IMG/VR virus record: IMGVR_UViG_2695420343_000002
Strand: one strand, 5' to 3'
Source: a virus
Lineage: Duplodnaviria; Heunggongvirae; Uroviricota; Caudoviricetes
Length of the DNA stretch: 46,924 nt
Shown here: piece after piece, positions 1,447 to 46,924 of the stretch
Numbering within the stretch: the stretch's first letter is position 1
How the letters are laid out: each line of letters begins with the position of its first letter
Translations under genes and position numbers: made by a program
The notes under the pieces: model-generated
What the model was told of the DNA's origin: nothing
Databases searched by the model: none
The model's input: only the letters and a program-made list of their open reading frames with translations

Positions 1447-1463
1447 ATGAGCCTATCTTTTTA

Positions 1464-6243: not shown

Positions 6244-6273
6244 AGAAAAAACCCGCCTGAAGGCGGGTTTTCA
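6243..6273. terminator. Bidirectional rho-independent terminator
   Basis: ACCCGCC-TGAA-GGCGGGT hairpin flanked by an A-run and a T-run, between convergent genes. Confidence 0.7.
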
Positions 6274-6290
6274 AAAAGCACCAGCTATGA

Positions 6291-6464
6291 TCATGCTGCT
6301 TTGCGACGACGAAGCTTACCCTGCTGCTCTTTACCAGAGACAGTAGCGTGAGTGAACGCATTAGGAGCAGCCTTCATCAGAACTTCAACAGCAGCACCCA
6401 TACCTGCGAATGCTTTCATTGTGTCGAACTTAACCTGTGGCTTGGTTGCTTTTTGATCTTTCAT
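6291..6464 (-). CDS. Small basic protein, 57 aa, hypothetical (below track cutoff)
   Basis: Translated by hand: MKDQKATKPQVKFDTMKAFAGMGAAVEVLMKAAPNAFTHATVSGKEQQGKLRRRKAA; GGGAG 8 nt upstream of ATG. Confidence 0.5.
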   Translation of the reverse strand: MKDQKATKPQVKFDTMKAFAGMGAAVEVLMKAAPNAFTHATVSGKEQQGKLRRRKAA

Positions 6465-6535
6465 AGAAAACTCCCGAGACAGTAAAGGCGTCTCTAACCC
6501 TTTCTTTAAAGCTAGCTTGTTTCGCTAACTTATGC

Positions 6536-6556
6536 CAATCGATCATGTCGATTGGT
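6536..6556. promoter_or_regulatory. Palindrome CCAATCGA-N5-TCGATTGG upstream of the small ORF
   Basis: Perfect 8-bp inverted arms, 5-bp spacer, about 70 bp upstream of the 6464 start codon. Confidence 0.4.
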
Positions 6557-6660
6557 GACATCGTTTCTTAGTAGTTTAAGCACAAAACGACTGCCATAGA
6601 TGTACCTTTAAGGTAATCTGGACGGGTATCCTACAATTTGTAGACCCTTCTCGTCTATAC

Positions 6661-7197
6661 CTACTGAGCAAATTTAAGAAAGATATCCTGCAGCTCATCA
6701 ATGACTGCCGACATCACATAACCGCACTGTTCCATGCGGAAACCAAAAGACTCGTAATACTGCACCAGTTCTGGTACTGGCTCTACAATGTGGACAACTT
6801 TACATTCAACAGCTTTACAAAATATAAAAGCACTCATAAGAGTGAGTAAAACCATGCGCCCTTTCAATGGGTGAGATTCATCTTCTCTAGAAAACCTTTC
6901 GATCATATGGATACGAAAGATGTTTTCTTCAACCCCATAAACACAAATTGCTGCTCCTGATGGTATTCCCTGAACCCGACCTTGCTGAACAAGTTTTATG
7001 CAGAACTCATACTTTTCTCTGGAGTTGCCATAGGTACTTAACGCATAGTCCCATTCAAGCTCACCATAGCCACCACACAGAATCTTGTAATCATCATCAC
7101 TGAGCGGACCAACAGCAAGAGGTAAGCCGACATGATCAATAATCAACTGGATATTGTTACGTACTGATTGACCTATCTCGTCCAGGGTAAGCATCAT
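6661..7197 (-). CDS. Putative GNAT-fold N-acetyltransferase (accessory gene)
   Basis: 178-aa ORF; C-terminal YYESFGF resembles the GNAT motif; looks AT-rich by eye; no search run. Confidence 0.5.
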   Translation of the reverse strand: MMLTLDEIGQSVRNNIQLIIDHVGLPLAVGPLSDDDYKILCGGYGELEWDYALSTYGNSREKYEFCIKLVQQGRVQGIPSGAAICVYGVEENIFRIHMIERFSREDESHPLKGRMVLLTLMSAFIFCKAVECKVVHIVEPVPELVQYYESFGFRMEQCGYVMSAVIDELQDIFLKFAQ

Positions 7198-7533: not shown

Positions 7534-8631
7534 ATGGCGTACTATAACATAGAGAAACGACTAAAATCCGATGGCACACCACGCTATCGCTGTAATGTGA
7601 TTATCAAAGAAAAAGGTGTTATCACTTACAGGGAAAGCAAAACATTCCCTAAACATGCTCATGCCAAAACATGGGGCACACAGAAAGTGATGGAATTAGA
7701 TCTATATGGCATTCCATCATCAAATGCAGTTGACGGACTTACAGTCCGTGACTTACTACACAAATATTTAAATGACCCAAATGCCGGAGGTAAAGCAGGC
7801 CGTACTAAAAGATATGTGCTGGAACTGCTTATGGATAGTGACATCTCCGCGATCAAACTATCTGAACTGACAGAAAATGACGTAATTGAACATTGCAGGC
7901 TAAGAAACAACGCTGGTGCAGGTCCTGCAACAGTCAGCCACGATGTTAGTTATCTTGGCAGTGTTCTGGATGCGGCCAAACCTGTATACGGAATTAATTA
8001 CACATCAAACCCGGCGAAAAGCGCTCGCCCATATCTACTTAAACTTGGTTTGATTGGTAAATCAAACCGTCGTAATCGTAGACCAGCATCTGATGAACTG
8101 GACATGCTCATTGCAGGCCTTCAACAACGATCTACTCATAAATGCTCAAAAATTCCGTTCGTTGATATCCTCAAATTTTCTGTATGGTCCTGTATGCGAA
8201 TCGGAGAAGTATGCCGGTTACGATGGGAAGATCTCGACCAGGAACAAAAATCTATACTCGTAAGAGACAGGAAAGATCCACGCAAAAAGGAAGGTAACCA
8301 CATGAAAGTAGCCTTGCTTGGGGAAGCCTGGGATATCGTCCAACGACAGCCCCAAAAATCGGAATTCATTTTTCCATATAACAGCACTTCTGTTACTGCG
8401 GGATTTCAGAGAGTAAGAAGCAAATTAGGTATTAAGGATCTGCGATACCATGATTTGCGTAGAGAAGGGGCAAGTCGCTTATTTGAGGCTGGTTTTAGTA
8501 TTGAGGAAGTCGCCCAAGTTACAGGGCATCGTTCATTAAACGTGCTATGGCAGGTATATACCGAACTGTATCCGAAATCTTTACATAATCGTTTTGAAGA
8601 GCTCCAAAGGAGCAGAAATAAGACCTCTTGA
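7534..8631 (+). CDS. int: Tyrosine-type phage integrase
   Basis: 365 aa; RYHDLRREGAS box and GHRS...VLWQVYTELY tyrosine region; ACGAGG upstream of ATG. Confidence 0.9.
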   Translation: MAYYNIEKRLKSDGTPRYRCNVIIKEKGVITYRESKTFPKHAHAKTWGTQKVMELDLYGIPSSNAVDGLTVRDLLHKYLNDPNAGGKAGRTKRYVLELLMDSDISAIKLSELTENDVIEHCRLRNNAGAGPATVSHDVSYLGSVLDAAKPVYGINYTSNPAKSARPYLLKLGLIGKSNRRNRRPASDELDMLIAGLQQRSTHKCSKIPFVDILKFSVWSCMRIGEVCRLRWEDLDQEQKSILVRDRKDPRKKEGNHMKVALLGEAWDIVQRQPQKSEFIFPYNSTSVTAGFQRVRSKLGIKDLRYHDLRREGASRLFEAGFSIEEVAQVTGHRSLNVLWQVYTELYPKSLHNRFEELQRSRNKTS

Positions 8632-9289: not shown

Positions 9290-9985
9290 ATGAAAAAGGA
9301 AATACTCAAGGCTCTTTGCCCTACATGCGGTGGGTTACGTAACTGCACTGTGCATGGGAAGCTAACCACTAGCTGGGAGGATTCCCAATATCCAGTTTAT
9401 GGGTACCATTACCATCACCTACTCCAATGCAATGGCTGTGATACTGTCTTCTATCACCACAACGAACACTTCAGTGAGCATACTACCCACGAATATCGTG
9501 ATGGTGAATTTGTAGAAACGCCTATAGATATGATCACTACCTATCCTGCCGCTGAAACATTTCAAGCTCCGATATGGTTATCCAAGCTTGAATCAGTTGA
9601 TCGTCAGCTCTTTCAAATATTTAATGAAATGTATTCTTCATATACTTCTGACCATTTCATTCTTTCGTCCATCGGTTTACGGACGATTTTTGATCGAACT
9701 GCTGAACTGTTACAAATTCACCCCGGTTTGCCGCTTGGTGAAAAAGTTGAAAAATTAAAACAAGATGGAGTCATAGGCGACACTGAGGCATGCGTTATAT
9801 CTTCAGTAATTGATGCAGGAAACGCCGCCGCACATCGCAGTTGGAGCCCGAATAAAAGTGAGTTCGAACAAATGCTAGAAGCTATAGAAAGTTTTGTCCA
9901 AAGAACTATCTTGGGCAAAAAATCACTTGAACATATAACCAAACAACTCCCACCTCGGGTTACAAGACCTAAAAATAGTGCATAA
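9290..9985 (+). CDS. Zinc-ribbon plus DUF4145-like domain protein (candidate accessory or defence gene)
   Basis: N-terminal CPTCGG...C..H...CNGC; C-terminal GLRTIFDRTAELL...LGEKVEKLKQDGVI...IDAGNAAAHRS fits my recollection of DUF4145; AT-rich by eye. Confidence 0.55.
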   Translation: MKKEILKALCPTCGGLRNCTVHGKLTTSWEDSQYPVYGYHYHHLLQCNGCDTVFYHHNEHFSEHTTHEYRDGEFVETPIDMITTYPAAETFQAPIWLSKLESVDRQLFQIFNEMYSSYTSDHFILSSIGLRTIFDRTAELLQIHPGLPLGEKVEKLKQDGVIGDTEACVISSVIDAGNAAAHRSWSPNKSEFEQMLEAIESFVQRTILGKKSLEHITKQLPPRVTRPKNSA

Positions 9986-15344: not shown

Positions 15345-16423
15345 CAGAACGGGTCCTCCTGTACTCTGGCTTTTTTCTTTTTCCGCGCGCCGGGGGCTTC
15401 GGGTTCAGGCAGATAAGCATCAGGTGGGCCGACACGGATTTCCGTCAGGGTGCCGTTCTGGTCCTGAGTAAACGTGACTTCCGAAACAAGCAGTTCGGTA
15501 TTGTCGAAACCACAGACCGGATCAAAGACAATCACCCGCTGGTTGGGCTGCCACAGCGTACCGTTACCCTGTCGCCAGCCCTGCACCACATAGGTGGTTT
15601 CATCCGTCCGCGCCGCCCGTTGTCGGGCTTCAAAGTCCGCACGGGCAATACAGCCTGCCCCCGTAGCCTGCCCTGTCTGCCTGATATACATCGGACGGTA
15701 ACGGGCAATAAATGCGTCCTCTGTGCGGGCCCGCAGCGCGGTGGTGGTGGCCTCACCGAAATCATCGTCGTTTCCGGCACGCTGCCCCGCCACCTGGTAA
15801 ACAGAAAACCGCTCCCGGATACTCTTCTCCGTATCGCAGGAAAGGATGTTTTCCCCGAGTACCAGCGCAGTATGTGCCCGCGTTGAGCCAATACCGCCAA
15901 TCACCAGCCTGCCGTGCGGGTCGTCGTAAGCCAGTGCCTGCTGCTGACCGAGTATTTTGTTGATTACCTCAATCACCGTTTCACCGTGATCAGGCTGGAC
16001 ATCAGGAATAACACCCGACGGCGCACCGTTGTTCACCACCTCAATGCCGAAAGGCGCAGCAAGCGCCTGCGCAATCTGTACCAGCGATCGTCCGTTAAAC
16101 TGTGTCGGTTCGGCTGCACAGTCAATCAGGTCAGCCGTCAGACTACGTCCGGCAATACCGGTGCTGACCGAACGGGCATCGTAACGAACGGGGGTCGCCT
16201 CCACCCAGCCGGTGATCACCAGCTCATCACCAATCAGCACTTCCACTTTTGAACCATTTTTAATGCGCGGCTGAAGCGTGGTGATACCCTCATCTCCCGG
16301 CCACTGGCGGGTGATCTCCACGCTGAAATCCCGCGCCAGCCGTTCAATACCGGCACCGATGCGCACCGATGTCCAGCCATTCCACTCCCGGCCATTTACC
16401 CGTAGCGTGACGTTATCGTTCAT
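15344..16423 (-). CDS. Mu gpP-like baseplate/tail protein
   Basis: 359 aa; follows the DNA-circulation gene as in Mu. Confidence 0.6.
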   Translation of the reverse strand: MNDNVTLRVNGREWNGWTSVRIGAGIERLARDFSVEITRQWPGDEGITTLQPRIKNGSKVEVLIGDELVITGWVEATPVRYDARSVSTGIAGRSLTADLIDCAAEPTQFNGRSLVQIAQALAAPFGIEVVNNGAPSGVIPDVQPDHGETVIEVINKILGQQQALAYDDPHGRLVIGGIGSTRAHTALVLGENILSCDTEKSIRERFSVYQVAGQRAGNDDDFGEATTTALRARTEDAFIARYRPMYIRQTGQATGAGCIARADFEARQRAARTDETTYVVQGWRQGNGTLWQPNQRVIVFDPVCGFDNTELLVSEVTFTQDQNGTLTEIRVGPPDAYLPEPEAPGARKKKKARVQEDPF

Positions 16424-17880
16424 TGCACTGGCACCTTCAGAGGGATCACCGGCACAAAGCCGGGATGCGTAATGGCATTACGCCGGATAATGTCCGCGTC
16501 ACGCGCCGCGTTATCAAACCAGGTCGCCGCCAGCACCAGCGCGGGTAAGACCTCATCCGGCGTGCGCTGAATGATCCGAGCAGACTGTTCAAGGCGCGTG
16601 TTGATATCCGCATTCAGATCTGCTTTCACCCGGCGCAGCGCCAGAAACAGCGCATCACTGGTTGTACGGGACAACTCCTTATCAATTGCCGTATTCAGTG
16701 TGTCGCGAATGTCAGTCAGTTCTTCCCACGTTGGCAGGTCAACCGTGTTTTTCACCGCCGGTGCATTGTTCAGTGCCGGATGCGTGACGGAAGGCCAGCC
16801 GGTGCTCTGCGCGGAAGTTGTTGACTGCCCCACTGCGGCATTCTGCATCACCGCGGAAGTTGTTGACTGCCCCACTGCGGCATTCTGCATCACCGCGGAA
16901 GTTGTTGACTGCCCCACTGCGGCATTCTGCATCACCGCGGAAGTTGTTGGCGCAGGCAATCGGGTGACGGCATACGCCGCTTCGCTGATTGCGGTCGCAC
17001 GAAGGGTGCTGGCAACCACGTTACGCTGCTGCGTCGCCGTGGCGGTGGTTTTACTGTCCGTTTTCCAGACGCCGCGCGGTTGCAGATCGCTGCCGAGGCT
17101 GACACCGGAAAGCGTTTTGATCATGGTGACCAGGTCGCTGGCGTTACCATAAAGGCGTTTCCCGGTACGCCACATTTTCTGCACCTGCTCAACGAAATTT
17201 TTGCCTGACGATGGCGGCGGCAGAAGTACCGAGATATCCCCCTGCAACAGCCTGGCGGCATCCGATACGGCAGAATCCACCACTTTCATCGCATCAGAAA
17301 CATACCCCAGCATTATGCTGGCATTACCGATAACGTCGTTCTGCACGAAATCCGCCACACCATCGATACTGAAACCGCTGAAGCTGTCACTGATGCAGTC
17401 ATCCAGTGCAGAACAGGATGACATCAGCGTCTGCGCCGTCGCCGCACCTGATGTGGGGTAAGAGAGTTCTCCCGCTTCGACAAACTTCAGGTCAAAGCGG
17501 ACAATACGCCCTTCACTTTTCGATGTGCTGACCCGAACCTCTCCGTCAACACAGACTTTCAGCTCACCGTAAGTCGGGTGGACAAGCGTGCCGGGACCGG
17601 GTTTATTCAGCGCGTCAATCAGGCGATCGCGCTGGTCAAAGCAGTCATCGCCCACCACATAAGCCGTGATGGACGGGCGGAAAGTGACTTTTCCCAGATC
17701 TTCGGTATAGGGTTTGTCGCGGTTCGGATATTCGTGTGTTTCCACACGGCGACCTGTTCCCGCACTTTCTTCTTCAACCTTAAACGGCACACCGCGAAAT
17801 GACGCGTCCTGAAGCCTGTCTTTCCACGTCATATAAACTCCGGATATAAAAAAGCCCACCGAAGTGGGCATGAAAGACAT
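16420..17880 (-). CDS. DNA circulation protein (Mu gpN-like)
   Basis: 486 aa directly downstream of the tape-measure region; contains three in-frame repeats AVMQNAAVGQSTTS. Confidence 0.65.
   Translation of the reverse strand: MSFMPTSVGFFISGVYMTWKDRLQDASFRGVPFKVEEESAGTGRRVETHEYPNRDKPYTEDLGKVTFRPSITAYVVGDDCFDQRDRLIDALNKPGPGTLVHPTYGELKVCVDGEVRVSTSKSEGRIVRFDLKFVEAGELSYPTSGAATAQTLMSSCSALDDCISDSFSGFSIDGVADFVQNDVIGNASIMLGYVSDAMKVVDSAVSDAARLLQGDISVLLPPPSSGKNFVEQVQKMWRTGKRLYGNASDLVTMIKTLSGVSLGSDLQPRGVWKTDSKTTATATQQRNVVASTLRATAISEAAYAVTRLPAPTTSAVMQNAAVGQSTTSAVMQNAAVGQSTTSAVMQNAAVGQSTTSAQSTGWPSVTHPALNNAPAVKNTVDLPTWEELTDIRDTLNTAIDKELSRTTSDALFLALRRVKADLNADINTRLEQSARIIQRTPDEVLPALVLAATWFDNAARDADIIRRNAITHPGFVPVIPLKVPVQ
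16811..16950. repeat. 42-bp tandem repeat, about 3.3 units, in-frame within the gpN-like gene
   Basis: GAAGTTGTTGAC recurs at 16814, 16856, 16898 and 16940. Confidence 0.85.
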
Positions 17881-36818: not shown

Positions 36819-37141
36819 ACTTTCAGGCCTCTCTCATGTAACCAGTGAGTTGCACGCAGCCTTGCGTTTTCCTCACCGGCAAGCAGTGAGCGGATAATTC
36901 CGACCACCTCGCTGTCGTCGTCCTTCATCGCGGTATGAATCTTTATCCCCCGGGCCACGCCACGCTTTATCGTGATGACGCCTTTTTTCTCCAGTGCGCG
37001 AAGATGTTCTACCGCAGCATTCACTGAACGGTATCCCAGCATGGTTGCCACCTCCTGATTGGTTGGCGGGAAGCCACGTTCTTTCTGGTAAGAAATCAGC
37101 ATATCCAGCACCTGCTGCTGGCATTGAGTTAATGTCGTCAT
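36815..37141 (-). CDS. LexA DNA-binding-domain-only protein (no S24 peptidase domain)
   Basis: 108 aa aligning to LexA residues about 1-75 (LTQCQQQVLDML...GFPPTNQEVATMLGYRSVNAAVEHLRALEKKGVI...ARGI); no Ala-Gly cleavage site or Ser/Lys protease domain. Confidence 0.7.
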   Translation of the reverse strand: MTTLTQCQQQVLDMLISYQKERGFPPTNQEVATMLGYRSVNAAVEHLRALEKKGVITIKRGVARGIKIHTAMKDDDSEVVGIIRSLLAGEENARLRATHWLHERGLKV

Positions 37142-37791
37142 GCCGCCATCTCCCTGACCAGTTTTTCTGCCTGCTGGCGAACCTGCGCCAGAAAGGCCTC
37201 ACCACATGCCTCAAGTTCATCGCGCCCGATGTAGCTGATTGCCGGTCCCTTCCAGGTCTTGTCGAAAACAGCAATAGCACCAGCGAAGAAAGCGCCTGTC
37301 GGCACCTGCTTCTCATCCTTCGGGATAAACCAGGCAGGCAGTTCAAAACCAATACGCCCGCGAATAAAAGCAATATGATCTGCATCTTCCGGCCACCACA
37401 CTTCGCTGGTGGCAGCTTTGATCAGGAAAACATAGCGCCCGCCTTTATCACGCATGGCACTGGCATGCTTCATGATGTAACGCATGCCGGTGATGTATTG
37501 CCCCTCATGCTGACTGGCGCGGCTGTATGGGGGATTACCAAAGGCAGCACCTTTAAGCTCCGCAAGGCGTTCTGACCAGTCATGCGCCAGCGCGTTGTCT
37601 TCCGCCGTGTAATACGCAGCACATTTGGCGTTATCACCGTCAGTGAACAGATCCAGAACAAACGGGCCAAACAGGGTGTTAATTCCCCAGAAAATGTTGT
37701 CCGGCGTGCGCCACTGATCGCCCACTTCCTTCAGTTCATGGGCTGGTTTGTTCCGCAGTTCCGCCAGCGCCTGGCAATATTTATTACTCAT
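37138..37791 (-). CDS. DNA N6-adenine methyltransferase (phage Dam-like)
   Basis: FGNPPYS catalytic motif; likely start MSNKYCQ at 37791 overlapping the upstream stop (track ORF extends to 37824). Confidence 0.75.
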   Translation of the reverse strand: MSNKYCQALAELRNKPAHELKEVGDQWRTPDNIFWGINTLFGPFVLDLFTDGDNAKCAAYYTAEDNALAHDWSERLAELKGAAFGNPPYSRASQHEGQYITGMRYIMKHASAMRDKGGRYVFLIKAATSEVWWPEDADHIAFIRGRIGFELPAWFIPKDEKQVPTGAFFAGAIAVFDKTWKGPAISYIGRDELEACGEAFLAQVRQQAEKLVREMAA

Positions 37792-38285
37792 TAAGCCCCC
37801 ACGTAATTCCCTGAGAGATACCACTCTTCACCTGATGCAGCCCGCTTACTGCTTTTCCGTAAACACCGTTCACGACGCGCCAGAAAATTGTTTCGTTCTG
37901 GCTGGGAGTGGCTTTCACGGAATGCCGCCATCCACACCGTTGCAGCACGACGGTATAAGCCCCTCGACTCCAGTTCTTCAGCCTGGCGGGTCAGGCACAA
38001 AATCACCCGGGGGTCGTTAGTGCCGACATAGAACTTGCGCACAGGTCTGGTTTCACGAACTGGTTGTGGTTCCGGCTCCTGCGCTCTCTCAGTCAGGCGC
38101 GAGAAATGTCTGCGTGTATCTCCTTCACAACGGTGAGCCACACGCCCACTCTGACGTAACTTGCTTGCTGACTGCAGAACGCGCTGCCGTGAGTAACCTG
38201 CAAAAGCATCCGCAATGTCTCCGGAAGTACACCCCGGATGGGCTTCAATGAATTTCTGAACTTCATTCAAAAGACTCATGATCAC
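37791..38285 (-). CDS. Hypothetical protein, possibly PerC/YfdN-like
   Basis: 164 aa; LYRRAATVWMAAF region; position between the initiator and Dam as in KplE1. Confidence 0.4.
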   Translation of the reverse strand: MIMSLLNEVQKFIEAHPGCTSGDIADAFAGYSRQRVLQSASKLRQSGRVAHRCEGDTRRHFSRLTERAQEPEPQPVRETRPVRKFYVGTNDPRVILCLTRQAEELESRGLYRRAATVWMAAFRESHSQPERNNFLARRERCLRKSSKRAASGEEWYLSGNYVGA

Positions 38286-39223
38286 CCCCTGAATCCTGCC
38301 GGGATCTGGCTGTAGTCCACGTTGTCGTAACTGGATTTGAAGTACGGATCTTCACGTTTTTCTGTGTATGTGCTGACGGACGGCGATAAGCGCAGGGAAA
38401 GCTCATCCCATTTTTCCCGCAGCTTCGACGGGCTGAGCACGTTACGGCACCAGAACGGATCGCGGCTGACGCGGCTGTACATCTCGCAGATTTGTTTGTG
38501 AGTACGACCATCCTGCACACACATCAGGCGAATTTCGTTTGCCCAGGCTGTCCAGTTCGGTTCTTTGGGACGAACCACCTCGCCGTCACATTCGGCAGCC
38601 TGCTCGTACAGGGCGATGATTTTTTTCCAGAGCCACTGTGCGCAGGTCAAATCATCCTGCGTCCCCCACTGGCGTTTTTTAGGGCTGAATACAACCGCAT
38701 CAGGATGGCGAGTTAAAAAATCCTGTTCAGCCGTCTGCGTGTCCGGTTGCGAAGCGTCCGGACGAGAAGGTTTTTTATCTGACGGATCATGTTTTGATTT
38801 TACTGACGGATCCCCGCCAGATTCTGACGGGTGAAAACCCGCTTTTTTGCCAGATTTCGACGCATCAAATTTTGACGGGTCAGATTTTGATGCGTCAGAT
38901 TTTGACGGGTCAGAATCTGACAGTTGAGAAAATGCCGCTGCCTGAAGCTTCGCAACGTTAAGCTGATAAACATTCGACGCATTGCGGTTACCCTGGCGAC
39001 GCGCCTTACGCGTTAACCAGCCTTCTGCTTCCAGCCGTGCGATAGCCGTTCTGACGGTACTCATCCCCGCGCCAATCTGGCGGGCAATGGTTTCAATTGA
39101 TGGCCAGCACACACCTTCGTCATTACTGAAATCAGCCAGGCGGGCCATAATTGCCACGCTGGATAATTTCATGCCTGACGCTGCGCAACCATCCCATACA
39201 TAGCCGGTTAATTTAGTGCTCAT
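38282..39223 (-). CDS. Replication initiator O-like protein (N-terminal HTH) with internal iteron repeats
   Basis: N-terminal [17 protein letters not shown]...TIARQIGAGMSTVRTAIARLEAEGWL; central low-complexity DSDPSKSDASKSDPSKFDASKS encoded by tandem DNA repeats. Confidence 0.65.
   Translation of the reverse strand: MSTKLTGYVWDGCAASGMKLSSVAIMARLADFSNDEGVCWPSIETIARQIGAGMSTVRTAIARLEAEGWLTRKARRQGNRNASNVYQLNVAKLQAAAFSQLSDSDPSKSDASKSDPSKFDASKSGKKAGFHPSESGGDPSVKSKHDPSDKKPSRPDASQPDTQTAEQDFLTRHPDAVVFSPKKRQWGTQDDLTCAQWLWKKIIALYEQAAECDGEVVRPKEPNWTAWANEIRLMCVQDGRTHKQICEMYSRVSRDPFWCRNVLSPSKLREKWDELSLRLSPSVSTYTEKREDPYFKSSYDNVDYSQIPAGFRG
38777..38922. repeat. Iteron-like direct repeats (candidate origin inside the initiator gene)
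   Basis: About 8 copies of (A)TTTTGACGGGTCAG-like 15-bp units; three consecutive units at 38868, 38883 and 38898. Confidence 0.6.
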
Positions 39224-39571
39224 GACCGACCTCTATTTCCCTGAATTTACGACGAAACTGTTCGAGCGGACTGAAGCACTCATGCTCATAGCCTTCGCGG
39301 AGGTAGATAACCCGTTGTGTTTCCGGTTCCCAACGAATGACTCTGACGGGCACTCCGTAGTGATCTTTGAACCAGCGGTTAACTTGTCGCAAAGGACTGT
39401 CTCCTTCTGCCGGTTGAAATCCCCCACAGCCCACTCTGCAAAGCTGTGGGTTACAATTTCCCTGTCACCTGGTACATTCACTGCATAGCAATACTCCACC
39501 TTCGCTTTTCCACCCGGTACAGGAAGCGCAATCAGTTGCGAGCGACGGTAGTGTGTTGTTAAACTGTTCAT
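39213..39571 (-). CDS. Hypothetical early protein, apparently frame-broken
   Basis: N-terminal half in track ORF 39233-39571, C-terminal half in 39213-39434 (GTG start in track); frames meet at a C5/G5 run at 39421-39425. Confidence 0.45.
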
Positions 39572-40152
39572 GCGTTAGTTTCTCCACAACCAGAAGCAAT
39601 CGACGCCACGACGCCCGGAGCTGCACACTCGCGGGCGTTACTCTTTTCCGGCGCACAAAAAACACGAAATAACAGTGTTAAATGCTCCTGCCACTTCGCC
39701 ATTACTTGGTAGCTGTTCTCTTCGATTTGCTCACGCTCAGCTTGGTCAATAACTCCATCAGCAGTTGCCTTGCGTAAGTACTGGGAATGCTTGCCAATCC
39801 ATTCTATTGACTCCATCAGCCGCTGATTAATGTCACCATTGTCAATGTCATCAATGACCACCAGCGGCACAAACACCCCATTACTACGACGGGCTATTGC
39901 ATCTGTTACATGCCTGGTACCACTGGCATCCTGTAAAACCATGGCCCACTCAAGTGGAAAAATTTGATCCCCACCGCTACGCAGTCTGTTATGCAATTGA
40001 TCTTTTGCTGGGGTGATATCATCAGATTTATACAAACCAAGAATTTCTGCTGCTTCCTCATAGCCATGAGGTAAATCAGCAATCGTTCTTCGTATTGCTG
40101 CCACCAGCCATGCTGGTTGTTTATCAACTTTCCATTCAGGTTCTTTACCCAC
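39568..40152 (-). CDS. CII-like / YdaT-family early regulatory protein (putative)
   Basis: 194 aa directly downstream of the cro-like gene in the rightward early operon; call is by position and family recollection. Confidence 0.45.
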
Positions 40153-40179
40153 GGTTAATTCCTCATTTCTGTGGTGTTT

Positions 40180-40377
40180 TTATGCCGCAGCACTGTTAGT
40201 CTTTTGATATAAAGACACGTCAACTTTCAGTTTCCCGTTAGTAATTTTTTCTAACTGGTACGCTCGGCCTTCAGGAATAATCTCAGGCCACTCTGAAACA
40301 GACGGATGCTTAATACCTAGGGCTTCGGCGGTTTTACAAACTCCGCCGAAATAATTAATCACGTCGGATTTCCGCAT
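40180..40377 (-). CDS. Cro-like HTH protein (YdaS family)
   Basis: 65 aa; GGVCKTAEALGIKHPSVSEW pattern; divergent from cI across an operator-rich spacer. Confidence 0.75.
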   Translation of the reverse strand: MRKSDVINYFGGVCKTAEALGIKHPSVSEWPEIIPEGRAYQLEKITNGKLKVDVSLYQKTNSAAA

Positions 40378-40404
40378 TTCTGTCTCCCGTTAAATTACGT
40401 TAAG

Positions 40405-40475
40405 CAGAAATGTAGGATATCCAACATACCAATGTCAAGAATCCTACATGGGCATGTGGTAGGATTGCCTACATG
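40405..40475. promoter_or_regulatory. Operator cluster between the cro-like gene and cI
   Basis: TGTAGGATATCCAACA at 40411-40426; inverted AATCCTACA/TGTGGTAGGATT at 40439-40465; GTAGGATTGCCTACA abutting the cI start. Confidence 0.5.
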
Positions 40476-41126
40476 ATGAACATGAGTGATCGTATTCGCC
40501 AAAGGCGAAAAGAACTGAACCTGACACAACAAGCACTGGCTGATTTGACTGGTGTGAACCGTGTCACGGTTACTGGATGGGAAAAGGACGACTACCAACC
40601 AAATGGAGCCAACCTTCAAGCCCTAGCCAACGCACTTAAATGCGATCCTCTGTGGCTTGTTAGCGGAAAAGGCTCGCCTGAACCAAAGATAAATCTAAAA
40701 CCTGAAATATTCGCAGTTAAAAAAGTCCCCCTCATCTCGTGGGTTCAGGCGGGTTCATGGACAATGACGGAGCCTGGTGTCAGGAAAGAAGATGCTGAAG
40801 AGTGGGTTTATACTACCGCCCTTGTATCAGAAATGGCATTTGCACTACGGGTCCGTGGTGATTCAATGACCAATCCCCTCGGCTCACCATCGATACCAGA
40901 AGGTTCTATCGTTATCGTAGAGCCAGATATTATTGATACAGAGTGTATTAACGGAAAAATCGTTGTTGCCCATATCAATGGTGGGCAAGAAGCGACACTC
41001 AAAAAATTTGTTGAGGACTGGCCGAACAGGTATCTCGTCCCACTAAATCCTAACTATAAAACTATTGAATGCGGTGAGAACTGCAGAATAGTTGGTCTTG
41101 TCAAACAAGTAATAATGGATTTTTGA
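40473..41126 (+). CDS. cI: CI-type prophage repressor (HTH_XRE + S24 LexA-like peptidase)
   Basis: 217 aa; LTQQALADLTGVNRVTVTGWE HTH; VRGDSMTNPLG Ser motif and K in LKKF for autocleavage. Confidence 0.9.
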   Translation: MMNMSDRIRQRRKELNLTQQALADLTGVNRVTVTGWEKDDYQPNGANLQALANALKCDPLWLVSGKGSPEPKINLKPEIFAVKKVPLISWVQAGSWTMTEPGVRKEDAEEWVYTTALVSEMAFALRVRGDSMTNPLGSPSIPEGSIVIVEPDIIDTECINGKIVVAHINGGQEATLKKFVEDWPNRYLVPLNPNYKTIECGENCRIVGLVKQVIMDF

Positions 41127-41150
41127 CACATCTTCCTCACTATCGCAAAA

Positions 41151-41172
41151 CCGGGGTATCCCCGGTTTTTTT
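41151..41172 (+). terminator. Rho-independent terminator after cI
   Basis: CCGGGGTATCCCCGG hairpin followed by T7. Confidence 0.75.
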
Positions 41173-41189
41173 ATGAGCCTATCTTTTTA

Positions 41190-41240
41190 TGTAGGATAAC
41201 CAACATAAACTCTTGACACTCACATGTTGGATATCCTACA
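41190..41240. promoter_or_regulatory. Second operator pair downstream of cI, flanking a TTGACA hexamer
   Basis: TGTAGGATAACCAACA at 41190-41205 and TGTTGGATATCCTACA at 41225-41240, inverted relative to each other. Confidence 0.5.
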
Positions 41241-41359
41241 TTTGTTTTTAGAGTTGTGGTGAATGCGCAGGCTGATGCGCGAAAGACATTGCAGCTATTG
41301 CGGAAAAGAGCTGTTCGGCGGGGCCATTAAACGCCCGTATCTGGAGGTTAAAGAACAAA

Positions 41360-41635
41360 ATGAAAGTCCAGATTTTAAACAATAGTGGTGAAGTCGTTTG
41401 GTCATACGACATAGCCGCTCCTGTAGATCAGAGCGGCGATAGCTGGACCAATGGGAAACATCAGATTATGGCTGGAGTTGTATTCTCTTTACGCCGTGCT
41501 TTGGAACAGGCTGAAGTATTTCCATCAGACCCTGAATGGAAATGGCCTTTTTCTATTTGTCCAAATTCGGAGAGCACATTTCAGAAAATTGGTCAGAAAG
41601 TCGCACTCGAAGAGCATCAGCCAACTGTTTCCTGA
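41360..41635 (+). CDS. Hypothetical protein downstream of cI (exclusion-gene position)
   Basis: GGAGG RBS; 91 aa; no motif recognised. Confidence 0.5.
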   Translation: MKVQILNNSGEVVWSYDIAAPVDQSGDSWTNGKHQIMAGVVFSLRRALEQAEVFPSDPEWKWPFSICPNSESTFQKIGQKVALEEHQPTVS

Positions 41636-41798
41636 TTTTTTCAGGTAACTCGTCGGCATCGCAGAAACAACAACGCTCGATCATGTTGAAAGCCGATTCG
41701 TAGAACTGTTTCTGCTGAGTGTCGCTGAGACAGGAAAAGAGCGACGTTACGATGATTTTATTAATTGCATTATCAAGTTCTTTTTCATCAAAAGTCAT
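41553..41798 (-). CDS. Hypothetical protein, convergent with and overlapping the previous ORF
   Basis: AAGGA RBS; 81 aa; overlaps the neighbour by 83 nt. Confidence 0.45.
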   Translation of the reverse strand: MTFDEKELDNAINKIIVTSLFSCLSDTQQKQFYESAFNMIERCCFCDADELPEKIRKQLADALRVRLSDQFSEMCSPNLDK

Positions 41799-42235
41799 TT
41801 GATTTTCCTTTTATGTATACGGGCTTAAAAGGATACCACCGAGCCTGAAGTGGTGAAAAGACAGGCACATAACAGCTAAGTATTTTCAACCAGAGAGAAT
41901 CCTTAGCGTTGTGGTGAATGCGGCTCAGCGCACGCGGGTTAAGGTTGAGGCTGACAGTCGACCTTCTGTGGATACCCACCCGCCTGGTGTGCAACCTTCG
42001 CCAGGCACCGGGAGGCACCCGGCACCACAACTTTATGCTGTGTGTAGTCCTCGCGGTACCAGTTTGTACACTTGCTTCCGGCTGGTACCGCTCTTTTTAC
42101 AAAACAGAGAAGAGCATCACCGGACGACGGGCTCATAACCCAATCCATCCGGGCGGCTGCCACCGCAGGTGTTCTTCTCTGTTTTGTGGAGAAACCAACC
42201 GACCTTGCAGGGTCGATATGATGAGGAGCAGCAAA

Positions 42236-42598
42236 ATGGCTAGCGAACGCAGTACTGATGTGCAGGCATTTATCGGGGAGCTGGACGGCGGCGTATTTGA
42301 AACCAAAATCGGCGCAGTTCTCAGTGAAGTCGCTTCCGGTGTGATGAACACGAAAACCAAAGGGAAGGTCTCACTCAACCTGGAAATCGAACCATTTGAT
42401 GAGAACCGTGTGAAAATCAAACACAAACTCTCATATATTCGCCCGACTAACCGCGGGAAAATTTCCGAAGAAGACACCACCGAAACGCCGATGTATGTCA
42501 ATCGCGGTGGTCGCCTGACTATTCTGCAGGAAGACCAGGGACAATTACTGACTCTTGCCGGTGAACCTGACGGAAAACTCCGCGCAGCAGGTCATTAA
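42236..42598 (+). CDS. YfdP-like early protein (120 aa)
   Basis: GAGGAG 8 nt upstream of ATG at 42236; the longer track ORF from 41918 is a read-through of the leader. Confidence 0.6.
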   Translation: MASERSTDVQAFIGELDGGVFETKIGAVLSEVASGVMNTKTKGKVSLNLEIEPFDENRVKIKHKLSYIRPTNRGKISEEDTTETPMYVNRGGRLTILQEDQGQLLTLAGEPDGKLRAAGH

Positions 42599-42663
42599 TA
42601 TCGTTTTTAATAAACTGATTATTTATCTCATCACTGAATATTTTTATATAGTGAGGACTTATT

Positions 42664-43488
42664 ATGTCTCAGAACTTAGACGCAACCGCAATTAATCAAA
42701 TCCATGCCCTTATTTCTGCTCAGGGTGTTAATGAAATTATCAGTAAGATTGGTGCCGATGCTGTGGCATTGCCTGAGAATTTCCGCATTCATGATCTGGA
42801 AAAATTTAATTTAAATCGCTTCCGTTTCCGTGGTGCGCTTTCCACTGCCAGCATCGATGACTTTACCCGTTATTCTAAAGATCTTGCAGATGAAGGCACC
42901 CGCTGCTTTATCGATGCTGATAATATGCGTGCCGTCAGTGTGCTTAACCTGGGTACTATTGATGAACCAGGTCACGCAGATAACACCGCCACACTCAAAC
43001 TGAAAAAGACAGCACCGTTCTCTGCTCTGTTGTCTGTTAACGGCGAGCGTAACTCCCAGAAATCACTGGCAGAATGGATTGAAGACTGGGCCGACTACCT
43101 TGTGGGCTTTGATGCTAATGGTGACGCCATTCAGGCAACAAAAGCGGCTGCGGCAATCCGTAAAATCACGATTGAAGCAAACCAGACCGCTGATTTTGAA
43201 GATAATGACTTCAGCGGCAAACGCTCCCTGATGGAATCTGTCGAAGCGAAGACCAAAGACATTATGCCAGTGGCATTTGAATTTAAATGCGTTCCGTTTG
43301 AAGGTCTGAAAGAACGTCCGTTTAAATTACGCCTCAGCATTATCACTGGCGATCGTCCTGTACTGGTTCTGCGCATTATTCAGCTGGAAGCAGTGCAGGA
43401 AGATATGGCTAACGAATTTCGTGATCTGCTTGTTGAGAAATTCAAAGACAGCAAAGTAGAAACCTTTATTGGTACTTTCACCGCCTGA
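42664..43488 (+). CDS. YfdQ-like phage early protein (274 aa)
   Basis: Identical translation to 2934-3758. Confidence 0.75.
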
Positions 43489-43615
43489 TTTCATTACTGC
43501 AAATGCCCCTGCGGGGGCATTTATGGAAACGTAATTAACTCAATAATCACCGGATGGTGAGGGCTTCCTTTTACCCAAACTCAGCGCGGTGCAGCGCATA
43601 TACGTGGAGAACAAA

Positions 43616-44152
43616 ATGTCATTTATTAAAACTTTTTCCGGGAAGCATTTTTATTATGACAGGATAAATAAAGACGACATCGATATTAACGATATCGCGG
43701 TTTCTCTTTCAAATATCTGTCGCTTTGCCGGTCATCTTTCGCACTTCTACAGCGTCGCCCAACATGCGGTTCTTTGCAGCCAGCTGGTGCCGCAGGAATT
43801 TGCTTTTGAAGCGTTAATGCATGATGCAACAGAAGCGTATTGCCAGGACATTCCCGCACCACTGAAACGCCTTCTTCCTGACTATAAACAAATGGAAGAA
43901 AAAATAGACTCCGTAATCCGTGAGAAATACGGATTACCCCCAGTTATGAGTACGCCCGTGAAATATGCCGATCTCATCATGCTGGCAACCGAACGCCGCG
44001 ATCTCGGGCTTGATGATGGCTCTTTCTGGCCTGTACTGGAAGGTATCCCGGCAACAGAGATGTTCAACGTGATTCCACTGGCACCGGGCCATGCCTACGG
44101 GATGTTTATGGAACGCTTTAACGAGTTATCGGAGTTACGCAAATGCGCATGA
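43616..44152 (+). CDS. HD-domain phosphohydrolase (YfdR-like)
   Basis: Identical to 3886-4422; H..H and HD motifs. Confidence 0.75.
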   Translation: MSFIKTFSGKHFYYDRINKDDIDINDIAVSLSNICRFAGHLSHFYSVAQHAVLCSQLVPQEFAFEALMHDATEAYCQDIPAPLKRLLPDYKQMEEKIDSVIREKYGLPPVMSTPVKYADLIMLATERRDLGLDDGSFWPVLEGIPATEMFNVIPLAPGHAYGMFMERFNELSELRKCA

Positions 44153-44505
44153 ATGTTTTCGAAATGGAAGGGTTTCTTCGTGGGAGATGTGTACCGCGAG
44201 ATCTGAAAGTAAATGAAACAGATGCTGAATACCTGGTGCGTAAATTCGATGCGCTTGAAGCTAAATGTGCAGCACAGGAAAACAAAGTAATACCAGTGTC
44301 AACTGAACTGCCACCAGCAAATGAAAGTGTTTTGTTATTCGATGCTAACGGAGAAGGCTGGCTAATTGGCTGGCGTTCTCTCTGGTACACCTGGGGACAA
44401 AAAGAAACCGGAGAATGGCAGTGGACATTTCAGGTCGGGGACCTTGAAAACGTCAATATCACTCACTGGGCAGTAATGCCAAAAGCACCGGAGGCTGGAG
44501 CATAA
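44143..44505 (+). CDS. DUF551-like protein (YfdS-like)
   Basis: Identical to 4413-4775. Confidence 0.65.
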   Translation: MRMNVFEMEGFLRGRCVPRDLKVNETDAEYLVRKFDALEAKCAAQENKVIPVSTELPPANESVLLFDANGEGWLIGWRSLWYTWGQKETGEWQWTFQVGDLENVNITHWAVMPKAPEAGA

Positions 44506-45083
44506 TGACCACTTTTACTGACAAAGAACTGATTAAAGAAATTAAAGAGCGTATCAGCAGCCTTGACGTGCGAGACGATATTGAGCGCCGTGCTTATGAA
44601 ATTGCACTGGCATCACTGGGAGCAGAACCTGTAAGCCAAACTTACAACTTGCCAGAATTAATCGAAGGCATGGAGGTTTCCATTGATGTAAGCACTTGTG
44701 ATGCGGATTTAGGTAATCGCTATTTCGGTACCGTCACCGAGGCGTTAGAACTTGATACTGCCAAGAATGGTTACATCCTCCTGGTTCAGGACGCAGAGCC
44801 AAACTTCGATATAAATGGCAACTCTCCGGTAACTCCGGATGGTTGGGTCATGGTGCCGAAGAAACTAACCGCTGAGAACGGCGCTAAGGGTGTGCTATCC
44901 GGTGAATTTTCAGAAACTACGTTTATAAGCTGCCCGGAATGCTTTGGCGATGATGATTGCGATACCTGCGACGGGAGCGGACGTATTGAAATTAAAGTGC
45001 CAGTCACGTGGTCGACCATAAAATCTATCTGGGATAAAGGTATCGAGTATTTTGCAGCAAAACCATCACAAGAGGTGAAGTGA
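44505..45083 (+). CDS. Hypothetical protein with C-terminal zinc-finger (CPEC...CDTCDGSG)
   Basis: Identical to 4775-5353. Confidence 0.65.
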   Translation: MTTFTDKELIKEIKERISSLDVRDDIERRAYEIALASLGAEPVSQTYNLPELIEGMEVSIDVSTCDADLGNRYFGTVTEALELDTAKNGYILLVQDAEPNFDINGNSPVTPDGWVMVPKKLTAENGAKGVLSGEFSETTFISCPECFGDDDCDTCDGSGRIEIKVPVTWSTIKSIWDKGIEYFAAKPSQEVK

Positions 45084-45655
45084 TGAACAACTTAATGATC
45101 GACCTTGAGACGATGGGGAAAAATAAGGATGCACCGATCGTTTCCATTGGCGCGGTGTTCTTTACCCCAGAAACCGGTGACATCGGACAAGAATTCTATG
45201 CGGTTGTCAGCCTGGACAGTGCTATGAAGCAAGGAGCTACACCTGACGGCGATACCATCCTGTGGTGGTTGAAACAGAGCCCTGAAGCACGAGCTGCAAT
45301 CTGTATTGATGATACTTTATCGATCAGCGATGCACTCTCTGAATTGAGTCATTTCATTAATCAGCATGCAGACAATATAAAATATTTAAAAGTCTGGGGT
45401 AACGGGGCCACCTTCGACAACGTAATTTTACGTGGAGCTTACGAGCGAGCAGGACAAATCTGCCCGTGGGCGTACTGGAATGACCACGATGTACGCACGA
45501 TCGTTACGCTTGGGCGTTCCATCGGATTCGACCCCAAAATGGACATGCCTTTCGATGGCGAACGGCACAACGCCCTGGCTGATGCCCGTCATCAGGCAAA
45601 ATATGTTTCCGCTATCTGGCAGAAATTAATTCCTGCCACCAGCACAGAATTATGA
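45080..45655 (+). CDS. DEDDh-type 3'-5' exonuclease
   Basis: Identical to 5350-5925. Confidence 0.7.
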   Translation: MMNNLMIDLETMGKNKDAPIVSIGAVFFTPETGDIGQEFYAVVSLDSAMKQGATPDGDTILWWLKQSPEARAAICIDDTLSISDALSELSHFINQHADNIKYLKVWGNGATFDNVILRGAYERAGQICPWAYWNDHDVRTIVTLGRSIGFDPKMDMPFDGERHNALADARHQAKYVSAIWQKLIPATSTEL

Positions 45656-45691
45656 TTTTCCCGGGTGCAGCCGGTTTTGATGGAGAAAATT

Positions 45692-45973
45692 ATGAACACC
45701 TTGTTTTTACTGATGGCTGAATTCAATACCCCAAACATTGAACTCTCAGCAGTTAGCCAAAAGTACTTTGGTATGAGTCCAGCCACGGCAGAAGCAAAAG
45801 CAAACGCTTGTAAGTTGCCCGTTCCAACATATCGCATCGGCACATCACAAAAAGCAAAACGTTGCATCAATATTCAAGATCTTGCGGAATACATAGACAA
45901 AAGGCGAGAAGAAGGACGTATCGAGTGGGAACAGGTCAGAACAGTCAAACAGAAGGACAAAGAACATCACTAA
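45692..45973 (+). CDS. Excisionase-like DNA-binding protein (TorI/PrtN-like)
   Basis: Identical to 5962-6243. Confidence 0.5.
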   Translation: MNTLFLLMAEFNTPNIELSAVSQKYFGMSPATAEAKANACKLPVPTYRIGTSQKAKRCINIQDLAEYIDKRREEGRIEWEQVRTVKQKDKEHH

Positions 45974-46003
45974 AGAAAAAACCCGCCTGAAGGCGGGTTT
46001 TCA
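45973..46003. terminator. Bidirectional rho-independent terminator
   Basis: Same hairpin as 6243-6273. Confidence 0.7.
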
Positions 46004-46020
46004 AAAAGCACCAGCTATGA

Positions 46021-46194
46021 TCATGCTGCTTTGCGACGACGAAGCTTACCCTGCTGCTCTTTACCAGAGACAGTAGCGTGAGTGAACGCATTAGGAGCAG
46101 CCTTCATCAGAACTTCAACAGCAGCACCCATACCTGCGAATGCTTTCATTGTGTCGAACTTAACCTGTGGCTTGGTTGCTTTTTGATCTTTCAT
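46021..46194 (-). CDS. Small basic protein, 57 aa, hypothetical
   Basis: Copy of 6291-6464. Confidence 0.5.
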   Translation of the reverse strand: MKDQKATKPQVKFDTMKAFAGMGAAVEVLMKAAPNAFTHATVSGKEQQGKLRRRKAA

Positions 46195-46264
46195 AGAAAA
46201 CTCCCGAGACAGTAAAGGCGTCTCTAACCCTTTCTTTAAAGCTAGCTTGTTTCGCTAACTTATG

Positions 46265-46285
46265 CCAATCGATCATGTCGATTGG
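46265..46285. promoter_or_regulatory. Palindrome CCAATCGA-N5-TCGATTGG
   Basis: Copy of 6536-6556. Confidence 0.4.
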
Positions 46286-46390
46286 TGACATCGTTTCTTA
46301 GTAGTTTAAGCACAAAACGACTGCCATAGATGTACCTTTAAGGTAATCTGGACGGGTATCCTACAATTTGTAGACCCTTCTCGTCTATAC

Positions 46391-46924
46391 CTACTGAGCA
46401 AATTTAAGAAAGATATCCTGCAGCTCATCAATGACTGCCGACATCACATAACCGCACTGTTCCATGCGGAAACCAAAAGACTCGTAATACTGCACCAGTT
46501 CTGGTACTGGCTCTACAATGTGGACAACTTTACATTCAACAGCTTTACAAAATATAAAAGCACTCATAAGAGTGAGTAAAACCATGCGCCCTTTCAATGG
46601 GTGAGATTCATCTTCTCTAGAAAACCTTTCGATCATATGGATACGAAAGATGTTTTCTTCAACCCCATAAACACAAATTGCTGCTCCTGATGGTATTCCC
46701 TGAACCCGACCTTGCTGAACAAGTTTTATGCAGAACTCATACTTTTCTCTGGAGTTGCCATAGGTACTTAACGCATAGTCCCATTCAAGCTCACCATAGC
46801 CACCACACAGAATCTTGTAATCATCATCACTGAGCGGACCAACAGCAAGAGGTAAGCCGACATGATCAATAATCAACTGGATATTGTTACGTACTGATTG
46901 ACCTATCTCGTCCAGGGTAAGCAT
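46391..46924 (-). CDS. Putative GNAT-fold N-acetyltransferase, 5' end cut by the window edge
   Basis: Copy of 6661-7197 lacking only the first codon. Confidence 0.5.
   Translation of the reverse strand: MLTLDEIGQSVRNNIQLIIDHVGLPLAVGPLSDDDYKILCGGYGELEWDYALSTYGNSREKYEFCIKLVQQGRVQGIPSGAAICVYGVEENIFRIHMIERFSREDESHPLKGRMVLLTLMSAFIFCKAVECKVVHIVEPVPELVQYYESFGFRMEQCGYVMSAVIDELQDIFLKFAQ

Follow-up and report, generated by a model that had tools for sequence, protein, structure and literature searches.

The six genes described here occupy positions 42236 to 45655 of a 46,924-nucleotide (nt) stretch of viral DNA (Caudoviricetes; IMG/VR record IMGVR_UViG_2695420343_000002), which we refer to in its whole length as the window. 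They form a run of co-directional plus-strand open reading frames (ORFs) that lies downstream of the cI repressor gene and ends at an excisionase-like gene of the PrtN family. Profile matches and motifs identify their products as YfdP, YfdQ, the HD-domain protein YfdR, the DUF551-like protein YfdS, a zinc-knuckle protein and a DEDDh exonuclease (Table 1), and both the gene identities and the arrangement given in the original prediction, which had been made from the sequence without database searches, were right. The run is the ordinary, widespread and already annotated yfdP-yfdQ-yfdR-yfdS cluster of Escherichia coli prophages together with mosaic parts. Its description as nuclease-rich is an overstatement, as there is one nuclease among the six products. 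All six are acidic, with isoelectric points (pI) of 4.3 to 5.7. The functions discussed below are putative and are taken from orthologues of these proteins, with the gene identities as the starting point.

YfdP and YfdQ of the window are 98% and 100% identical to the K-12 proteins, and homologues of the former bear the precomputed Pfam assignment PF27127. In the AlphaFold2 (AF2) model of YfdP (predicted local distance difference test [pLDDT] score of 79.6), a long helix precedes three long antiparallel strands. A Foldseek search of the Protein Data Bank (PDB) with this model gave nothing below an E value of 8e-3, with template modeling (TM) scores of 0.4 at most, and thus no significant fold match; the matches were just generic partial ones to a helix with a curved sheet, as in NTF2-like folds and the CaMKII hub. 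The YfdQ model (pLDDT 79.7) likewise found nothing in the PDB below E=0.1 (TM of 0.4 at most), and the viral structures of BFVD that it resembled were those of further DUF2303 proteins and of phage proteins that are unnamed or uncharacterised. By sequence, YfdQ matches PDB entry 9o7m, deposited as 'YfdQ Protein' with 36 chains in the entry (E=2e-44), whose chain shares 96% identity with the YfdQ homologue that Xanthomonas phage Usaquen encodes (locus L086, 4004-4828). This entry was not among the matches of the Foldseek PDB search with the YfdQ model, and a literature search on 9o7m, DUF2303 and the YfdQ structure found no paper describing it. Taking only these 36 chains as a guide, we guess that a large complex may be formed by YfdP together with YfdQ. 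When YfdP, YfdS and the zinc-knuckle protein were compared with PDB sequences, nothing significant was returned, and a match of YfdP to the PARP14 macrodomain (E=0.2) was dismissed as chance. In the profile searches, all six products fell into large protein families.

YfdR is 97% identical to its K-12 counterpart and has H50 and H69-D70, candidates for the H and HD of the metal-binding motif H...HD...D. The start most likely is the ATG at 43616, which gives the 178-residue product of K-12 yfdR, rather than the GTG at 43589. The closest solved structure is the HD protein Atu1052 (PDB 2gz4, E=9e-14). In RefSeq YfdR is annotated as a 5'-deoxynucleotidase, and its PHROG is named 'deoxyribonucleoside 5' monophosphate phosphatase'. 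However, the protein scores below the cut-offs of both the YfbR-like family PF12917 (25.0 versus 25.9 bits) and NCBIfam PRK03826 (20.4 versus 122), so we classify it by its profile scores as a distant relative of YfbR and not as an equivalog. A weak activity of the 5'-deoxynucleotidase type has been reported for YfdR (Zimmerman 2008, as cited in PMC4776307), and its nucleotide affinity is much below that of the 5'-deoxynucleotidase YfbR (PMC4776307). The T5 deoxynucleotidase Dmp was considered as a homologue and rejected, as BLASTP detected no similarity between it and YfdR (best E value, 3.6).

The two following genes are modular. YfdS, 96% identical to the K-12 protein, combines an N-terminal segment with a C-terminal DUF551 domain (E=2.7e-4). 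The zinc-knuckle protein matches K-12 YfdT only in residues 1 to 42 (88% identity), and its residues 1 to 47 match several PHROGs with differing C termini; at the close loci described below, too, the matches to this protein are N-terminal only. Its C-terminal domain is acidic (pI 4.3 for the protein) and contains the knuckle, C143-x2-C146-x5-C152-x2-C155-G-S-G. Neither a Pfam match nor a PDB sequence match was found for it. Its 7,715 relatives carry the source names 'molecular chaperone DnaJ', 'ead/Ea22-like' and 'DUF551', and these varied names, together with the shared N-terminal segment, identify it by sequence as a mosaic protein of the Ead/Ea22 type, which belongs to the exo-xis region of lambdoid phages. 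It shares with the lambda Ea22 family the position between the early-left functions and xis and the mosaic build, in which a common N terminus is joined to swappable acidic C-terminal domains, including DUF551. It differs from it in the DnaJ-type knuckle, which is not described for lambda Ea22 (PMC10834534). The Ead_Ea22 family itself (PF13935) is absent from the window protein in the Pfam search, and some of the relatives carry it. The identity as a DnaJ chaperone, the PGAP name of close relatives, was rejected as an over-annotation that rests on one knuckle: neither DnaJ nor DnaJ_CXXCXGXG matched in Pfam, and there is a single four-cysteine knuckle rather than repeated CxxCxGxG.

The exonuclease, which probably starts at the ATG at 45083, fits the Rv2179c-like family PF16473 along its whole length (profile positions 1 to 177) and has all five DEDDh residues (D7, E9, D112, H162 and D167). 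It matches PDB entries 8kel and 8ken (E=3e-10), which are T4 DexA (PMC12153337). The equivalents of DexA S87 and D90 are kept as S80 and D83. The T4 protein is longer, 227 amino acids versus 190, with the alignment covering residues 4 to 141 only, and the window gene is linked to an excisionase gene and not to DNA metabolism genes of the T4 type. DexA scavenges host DNA, and an E. coli homologue, EcD, defends against T4 (the 'HREX' idea); EcD is a dimer-only form that is specific for 5-hydroxymethylcytosine (5hmC) DNA and has lost the D90 equivalent (PMC12153337). The window exonuclease is probably not an HREX-type EcD, as it retains this residue and as the ends of EcD, read from the cloning primers (N terminus MIDTET..., C terminus ...TIPETY), differ from its own; no EcD-like ORF was present in any of the loci that we fetched. 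The adjacent excisionase gene has the position and length (309 bp) of the gp25 excisionase of phage mEp460.

Table 1. Features at and around the six-gene run and elsewhere in the window (aa, amino acids)
Feature	Position	Strand	Details
yfdP	42236-42598	+	120 aa; phrog_204 E=5e-49
yfdQ	42664-43488	+	274 aa; DUF2303 (PF10065) E=4e-93; phrog_210 E=5e-120
yfdR (HD gene)	43616-44152	+	178 aa; phrog_318 E=4e-110; weak YfbR-like and HD_3 Pfam matches
yfdS	44143-44505	+	120 aa; phrog_583 E=1e-82; DUF551 22.2 bits vs cut-off 22.0
Zinc-knuckle gene	44505-45083	+	192 aa; phrog_60 E=3e-42; no Pfam match
DEDDh exonuclease	45083-45655	+	190 aa; PF16473 E=3e-75; phrog_255 E=4e-93
Excisionase-like gene, PrtN family	45665-45973	+	PF11112 E=4e-23; phrog_1300 'excisionase' E=8e-40
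Chi site in six-gene run	44311-44318	-	
Chi site in six-gene run	45636-45643	-	
cI	40473-41126		217 aa; intact
Candidate pL-like promoter, TTGACA-18-TACATT	41213-41242	+	Consensus scan, 10/12 matches; consensus match only
pR-like site	40438-40409	-	Divergent, upstream of cro
Terminator-like hairpin after cI	~41148-41172		pL-like site just beyond
Minus-strand ORF	41553-41798	-	phrog_3311
Minus-strand ORF	41939-42163	-	phrog_3651
STnc100 small RNA family match (RF02076)	41878-42100	+	49.1 bits vs gathering score 47; full model 1-206
GC-rich hairpin with flanking A and T runs, bidirectional-terminator-like	45977-46002		4 nt past excisionase stop
Second copy of six genes	2506-5925	+	Assembly overlap; same genes as 42236-45655
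First-copy cI	1038-1400		Broken by deletions near contig start
O-like initiator	38282-39223	-	phrog_391
Integrase	7534-8631	+	
Minus-strand gene beside integrase	46391-46924 (= 6661-7197)	-	177/178 aa; phrog_4350
Minus-strand gene beside integrase	46021-46194	-	Small ORF
DUF4145 gene	9290-9985	+	phrog_1305 'DNA binding protein'
Minus-strand ORF, tail region	16420-17880	-	486 aa
Exact tandem repeat	16810-16949		42-nt period; three overlapping copies of 56-nt unit

One of the closest described counterparts of the run is the CPS-53/KpLE1 prophage of K-12, where yfdP to yfdT (b2359 to b2363) share the order, strand and gene lengths of yfdPQRS, with identities of 98, 100, 97 and 96%, and where the fifth gene shares with the window only the first 42 residues already mentioned. 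Beyond that point both regions differ: K-12 has a short yfdT (101 amino acids), a ypdJ remnant and then the TorI excisionase, while the window instead has the 192-residue zinc-knuckle protein, the full DEDDh exonuclease and the PrtN-type excisionase. The exonuclease has no counterpart in K-12 and no similarity to YpdJ, and the excisionase is unrelated to TorI. In addition, CPS-53 is a defective prophage and the window an apparently complete phage genome. Phage mEp460 (gp35 to gp25) has the same layout of cI, yfdP, DUF2303, HD and yfdS-like genes, followed further on by exonuclease, excisionase, two minus-strand genes and integrase, but it carries five genes between yfdS and the exonuclease (two hypothetical, one ead/Ea22-like, one small hypothetical and one DUF551) where the window has the single zinc-knuckle gene. 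Gene order and lengths also match those of SfV (orf29 to orf33), with the match stopping within yfdS, at query position 3430.

These genes are very common. The region matches 249 phage records, with DNA 97 to 98% identical to that of vB_EcoM-720R4, mEp460 and SfV, and parts of it are found in 3416 of 5426 complete E. coli genomes (63%), at least 80% of it in 251. The RefSeq names there are YfdP, YfdQ family, yfdR 5'-deoxynucleotidase, molecular chaperone DnaJ and 3'-5' exonuclease. A block from query position 637 (~41836 in the window, ~400 nt 5' of yfdP) to yfdS is a single unit common to many phage records. A close set was made up of 80 IMG/VR loci that encode a YfdQ with 99% or more identity to that of the window, 61 of which extend far enough to judge the later genes. 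The yfdP-yfdQ-yfdR order is kept at fixed spacing in 77 of the 80, and the other three loci end before a complete yfdR. Beyond yfdR the loci vary: 36 of the 61 have a full-length yfdS, 16 of the 61 carry the exonuclease, the distance between yfdR and the exonuclease ranges from 1.5 to 4.1 kb, and a single locus of the 61 combines a zinc-knuckle copy at least 90% identical with the other five genes. The exonuclease and the excisionase behave as a fixed pair, with a PrtN-type excisionase directly following in all 16 exonuclease-bearing loci.

A diverse set, joined with four annotated phages and two loci of the close set, gave 22 YfdQ clusters at 85% identity. A YfdP homologue is directly 5' of YfdQ in every one of them, an HD gene lies 0.85 to 2.8 kb 3' of YfdQ in 18, and a homologous exonuclease occurs in six, directly after yfdR in lineages L114 and L116. 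Pseudomonas phage pAN has, in a row, YfdP-like, YfdQ, two unknowns, a 3'-5' exonuclease and a phosphohydrolase; in Vibrio phage 24E35.2 the genes are those for a DnaQ-like exonuclease, YfdP-like, YfdQ and SSB; and in Xanthomonas phage Usaquen the YfdP-like and YfdQ genes precede those for a recombinase, an exonuclease and SSB. In these three phages, the ORFs 5' of YfdQ align with YfdP at 33 to 38% identity. In phage P13374, genes for a Gam-like protein, RecT, an exonuclease and SSB lie immediately upstream of YfdP-YfdQ. The linkage counts across the close and diverse loci indicate that the conserved unit is YfdP-YfdQ, usually with the HD gene, in phages of Escherichia, Vibrio, Pseudomonas and Xanthomonas, with the zinc-knuckle gene and the exonuclease-excisionase pair as mosaic additions beside it. 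The six genes are thus not one fixed module but consist of a conserved cassette, yfdPQR(S), and of mosaic parts attached to it. The strict linkage of YfdP and YfdQ and the frequent linkage of the HD gene, across distant gammaproteobacterial phages, are modestly new; the cluster as such is among the commonest E. coli prophage gene sets, with K-12 orthologues that have already been studied genetically and biochemically.

The window itself is a circular genome of ~39.73 kb assembled with an end overlap of ~7.2 kb. In a self-comparison, its ends were identical (1-7194 with 39714-46924) except for 17 one-base deletions, all of them at positions 51 to 2545 of the first copy, so the start of the contig is of low quality and error-prone. 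The six genes accordingly appear twice, and a biological duplication was ruled out in favor of the assembly overlap of a circular genome. In the copy under study cI is intact, and in the first copy it is broken by these deletions. The structural genes are 97% identical to those of the Shigella and E. coli myoviruses SfII, SfI, SfIV and vB_EcoM-689R6, and the early region is lambdoid, with Cro of the P22 type, a CII-like activator, a cI repressor of the S24 type, an O-like initiator, Dam, RusA, Q, holin, endolysin and Rz. The replication module appears to contain a single O-like initiator; the genes next to it (37138-39571) encode Dam, a PerC-like activator and a protein with no assigned function, and no lambda P, DnaC or DnaB-type helicase loader was found among the genes of this interval.

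The original prediction had also stated that none of the six genes is a canonical Red/RecET recombinase, and this was borne out. Pfam and PHROG scans of the six genes and of the other early-left and early-right genes (the structural genes were outside these scans) detected no annealing protein, Gam or 5'-3' exonuclease, with RusA as the sole match of a recombination type. The genome is rich in Chi sites (GCTGGTGG), with 24 in the window and 20 in the unique genome versus 1.7 expected for the 46.9-kb window, 18 of the 20 on the minus strand; two are within the six-gene run. Lambdoid phages of the LLS type (class A) are known to lack a recombination module, to have many Chi sites and to rely on host RecBCD, and yfbR/yfdR-, yfdQ- and yfdP-like genes are common in their early-left operons (PMC12315714). 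The window phage has the features of class A that we looked at, namely no recombination module, an O-only replication module and at least four Chi sites biased to one strand. In common with the LLS type it has no Rec genes among those scanned, the O-only module, the early-left set of yfdR/yfbR-like, yfdQ and yfdP genes and the Chi bias, a likeness judged by the class criteria, and it differs in its structural genes, which are of the SfV/SfII myovirus type. A Chi-rich and strand-biased genome points to reliance on host RecBCD, and since phages of the LLS type use RecBCD and Chi (PMC12315714), the lack of Red/RecET genes here is already explained. The same study considers it unlikely that the yfdPQR-type genes are hidden recombination genes, as they are also found in phages with full Rec modules, and reports that stray DnaQ-type nuclease genes tend to adjoin int (PMC12315714). 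The arrangement that we found in P13374, with YfdP-YfdQ beside a full Rec module, agrees with it.

Regarding transcription, the five genes from yfdR to the excisionase overlap or are at most 9 nt apart (yfdS overlaps yfdR by 10 nt, and the start of the zinc-knuckle gene overlaps the stop of yfdS in ATGA), with larger gaps of 65 nt between yfdP and yfdQ and 127 nt between yfdQ and yfdR. From this spacing and from consensus signals we infer an operon. A candidate pL-like promoter lies just beyond the terminator-like hairpin that follows cI, and its hexamers recur in a divergent pR-like site upstream of cro. An STnc100-like element is located ~135 nt 5' of yfdP on the same strand, in the conserved leader, where it overlaps the minus-strand ORF matching phrog_3651. 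Past the excisionase, the strong, bidirectional-terminator-like hairpin has an 11-bp stem with 6 GC pairs and was called on the minus strand; on the plus strand the stem is followed by TTTC only, so any termination of the plus-strand transcript here would likely be weak.

The function of the cassette can be approached through its K-12 orthologues. Noguchi and Katayama found that multicopy yfdQ and yfdR, together with yfdS or yfdT, suppress over-initiation and block initiation at oriC, an inhibition seen in vivo and in extracts, with yfdP being dispensable for it (PMC4776307). The binding of purified YfdR to domain I of DnaA depends on Phe46, and YfdR is a moderate competitor of DiaA and DnaB; the authors liken the role that they suggest in the ancestral phage to the inhibition of DnaA by lambda P (PMC4776307). 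With 96 to 100% identity to the K-12 proteins, YfdP, YfdQ, YfdR and YfdS of the window should behave alike. We therefore propose that the six genes are an accessory part of the early-left (pL-type) transcription unit, whose core would damp DnaA-dependent initiation of the host during lytic development. The operon would be de-repressed upon induction or infection, after which YfdR would bind DnaA domain I at the Phe46 surface used by DiaA and DnaB, and YfdR, YfdQ and either YfdS or the YfdT-like protein would damp initiation at the host oriC. The exonuclease, for its part, could trim 3' DNA ends or oligonucleotides, as T4 DexA does. We put this explanation at roughly 60%, a figure that covers it jointly with two further propositions: that the source is an SfV/SfII-like temperate phage, lambdoid and Chi-rich, that carries no recombination module, and that the run was put together from three evolutionary pieces, the yfdPQR(S) cassette, the mosaic Ead/Ea22-type protein and the pair of DexA-type exonuclease and PrtN excisionase.

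Several observations weigh against this proposal. The effect on DnaA was seen on overexpression only, with the authors allowing for a possible artefact, and a yfdQRST deletion had no phenotype (PMC4776307). The mechanism, moreover, would be carried over from the K-12 orthologues alone. What YfdT has in common with the zinc-knuckle protein is confined to 42 N-terminal residues, so their functional equivalence is an assumption, and 4 of the 22 YfdQ lineages have no HD gene, which means that YfdP-YfdQ must have a role independent of YfdR. As for transcription, the putative pL and yfdP are separated by PHROG-matching ORFs of the opposite strand, and a hairpin lies between yfdQ and yfdR, so that a single uninterrupted transcript can only be presumed; promoter-like matches are also no commoner in this region than in shuffled sequence.

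Four other explanations are possible, each weaker than the one based on DnaA. Nucleotide-pool manipulation, put forward in the original prediction, would have the exonuclease scavenge host DNA by degrading DNA ends or oligonucleotides to deoxynucleoside monophosphates (dNMPs) and the HD enzyme dephosphorylate them, reshaping the pool during lytic growth in analogy to T4 DexA and, functionally, to the T5 deoxynucleotidase Dmp. It draws on the annotation of YfdR as a 5'-deoxynucleotidase (RefSeq and PHROG name) and its reported weak activity, on an exonuclease that is a homologue of DexA with all catalytic residues, DexA being a scavenger of host DNA (PMC12153337), and on the recurrence of HD and 3'-5' exonuclease genes by YfdP-YfdQ, adjacent to each other in pAN and with the exonuclease following yfdR in L114 and L116. 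However, the pairing is optional, as no more than 16 of 61 close loci and 6 of 22 diverse lineages carry the exonuclease; YfdR has no detectable similarity to T5 Dmp; the function found for the K-12 orthologue, on DnaA and oriC, is a different one (PMC4776307); and dephosphorylation of dNMPs would starve the replication of the phage itself of precursors. We consider this explanation unlikely.

A benefit to the lysogen seems to us more doubtful still. It could consist in stress tolerance through yfdQ and yfdS, as CPS-53 deletions of these genes are reported to be sensitive to hydrogen peroxide or methyl methanesulfonate (MMS), or in a DexA-like defence against phages with modified DNA ('HREX'), as EcD protects against T4 (PMC12153337). 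Against both, the promoter upstream would be repressor-controlled, so the genes should be silent in a lysogen. In the case of the second, the exonuclease keeps S80 and D83 (DexA S87 and D90), the latter being the position lost in EcD, and EcD has different termini, as judged from primers, with no such protein in the loci fetched.

On a par with the lysogen benefit in its low probability is an extension of the DnaA-based proposal, in which YfdP, YfdQ and YfdR would be a device for taking over host replication in O-only lambdoid phages that have no helicase loader. In this view YfdR would cover the surface of DnaA domain I that binds DnaB and DiaA, and the three proteins together would shut down oriC and free host DnaB(-DnaC) or redirect it to the phage origin. 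The conserved triad, the O-only module of the window and the competition between YfdR and DnaB for DnaA (PMC4776307) fit this idea but are not tests of it. Of 134 YfdQ-bearing loci, 96 encode an initiator of the same O-like family, which fits as well, and the 6-kb upstream flank of these 134 loci contains no loader-like protein cluster, although the loci are closely related and have no control set, so this is not evidence for a takeover.

The other function suggested by the original prediction was anti-defence, by which one or more products would inactivate restriction or abortive infection systems of the host, for example, by degradation of signalling nucleotides or by DNA mimicry. Most of these early genes have no known function, all the products are acidic, and HD and DEDDh folds could in principle degrade nucleotide signals. 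Nonetheless, no family match or paper supports it: a PADLOC scan (no anti-defence library was searched) gave only a weak, generic DEDDh match, a literature search found no paper linking these families to anti-defence, and the fold searches gave nothing related. Besides, the YfdP-YfdQ-HD order is fixed over a wide phylogenetic distance, which fits a life-cycle function better than arms-race cargo, and the K-12 phenotype is one of replication initiation, so we regard anti-defence as very improbable.

Least probable of all is a cryptic recombination or repair module in which YfdP-YfdQ and the exonuclease would substitute for Red/RecET: the genes take the place on the map where lambda has its recombination genes, the early genes scanned include none for a known single-strand annealing protein, distant homologues have genes for SSB, a recombinase and an exonuclease as neighbors, weak MMS sensitivity is reported for a yfdQ deletion and a YfdQ homologue was deposited with 36 chains (9o7m), but YfdP-YfdQ are also found beside complete Rec modules (P13374; ArgO145 according to PMC12315714), their models have no significant fold match to solved structures and the Chi-rich, strand-biased genome points to host RecBCD.

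As a strictly linked pair, YfdP-YfdQ is a sensible target for functional work, and its role in lytic growth, once defined, would fill a real gap in the biology of lambdoid phages. It is a question about a known family and not about a new kind of system.

Outside the run, two minus-strand genes, one of them a small ORF, lie between the excisionase and the integrase, an arrangement before the integrase that is shared with mEp460; they could be cargo expressed in the lysogen. Just 3' of the integrase and outside the structural operon is a gene for a DUF4145 protein, which may be cargo near the attachment site. Finally, within a minus-strand ORF of the tail region there is an exact tandem repeat with a period of 42 nt, made up of three overlapping copies of a 56-nt unit.

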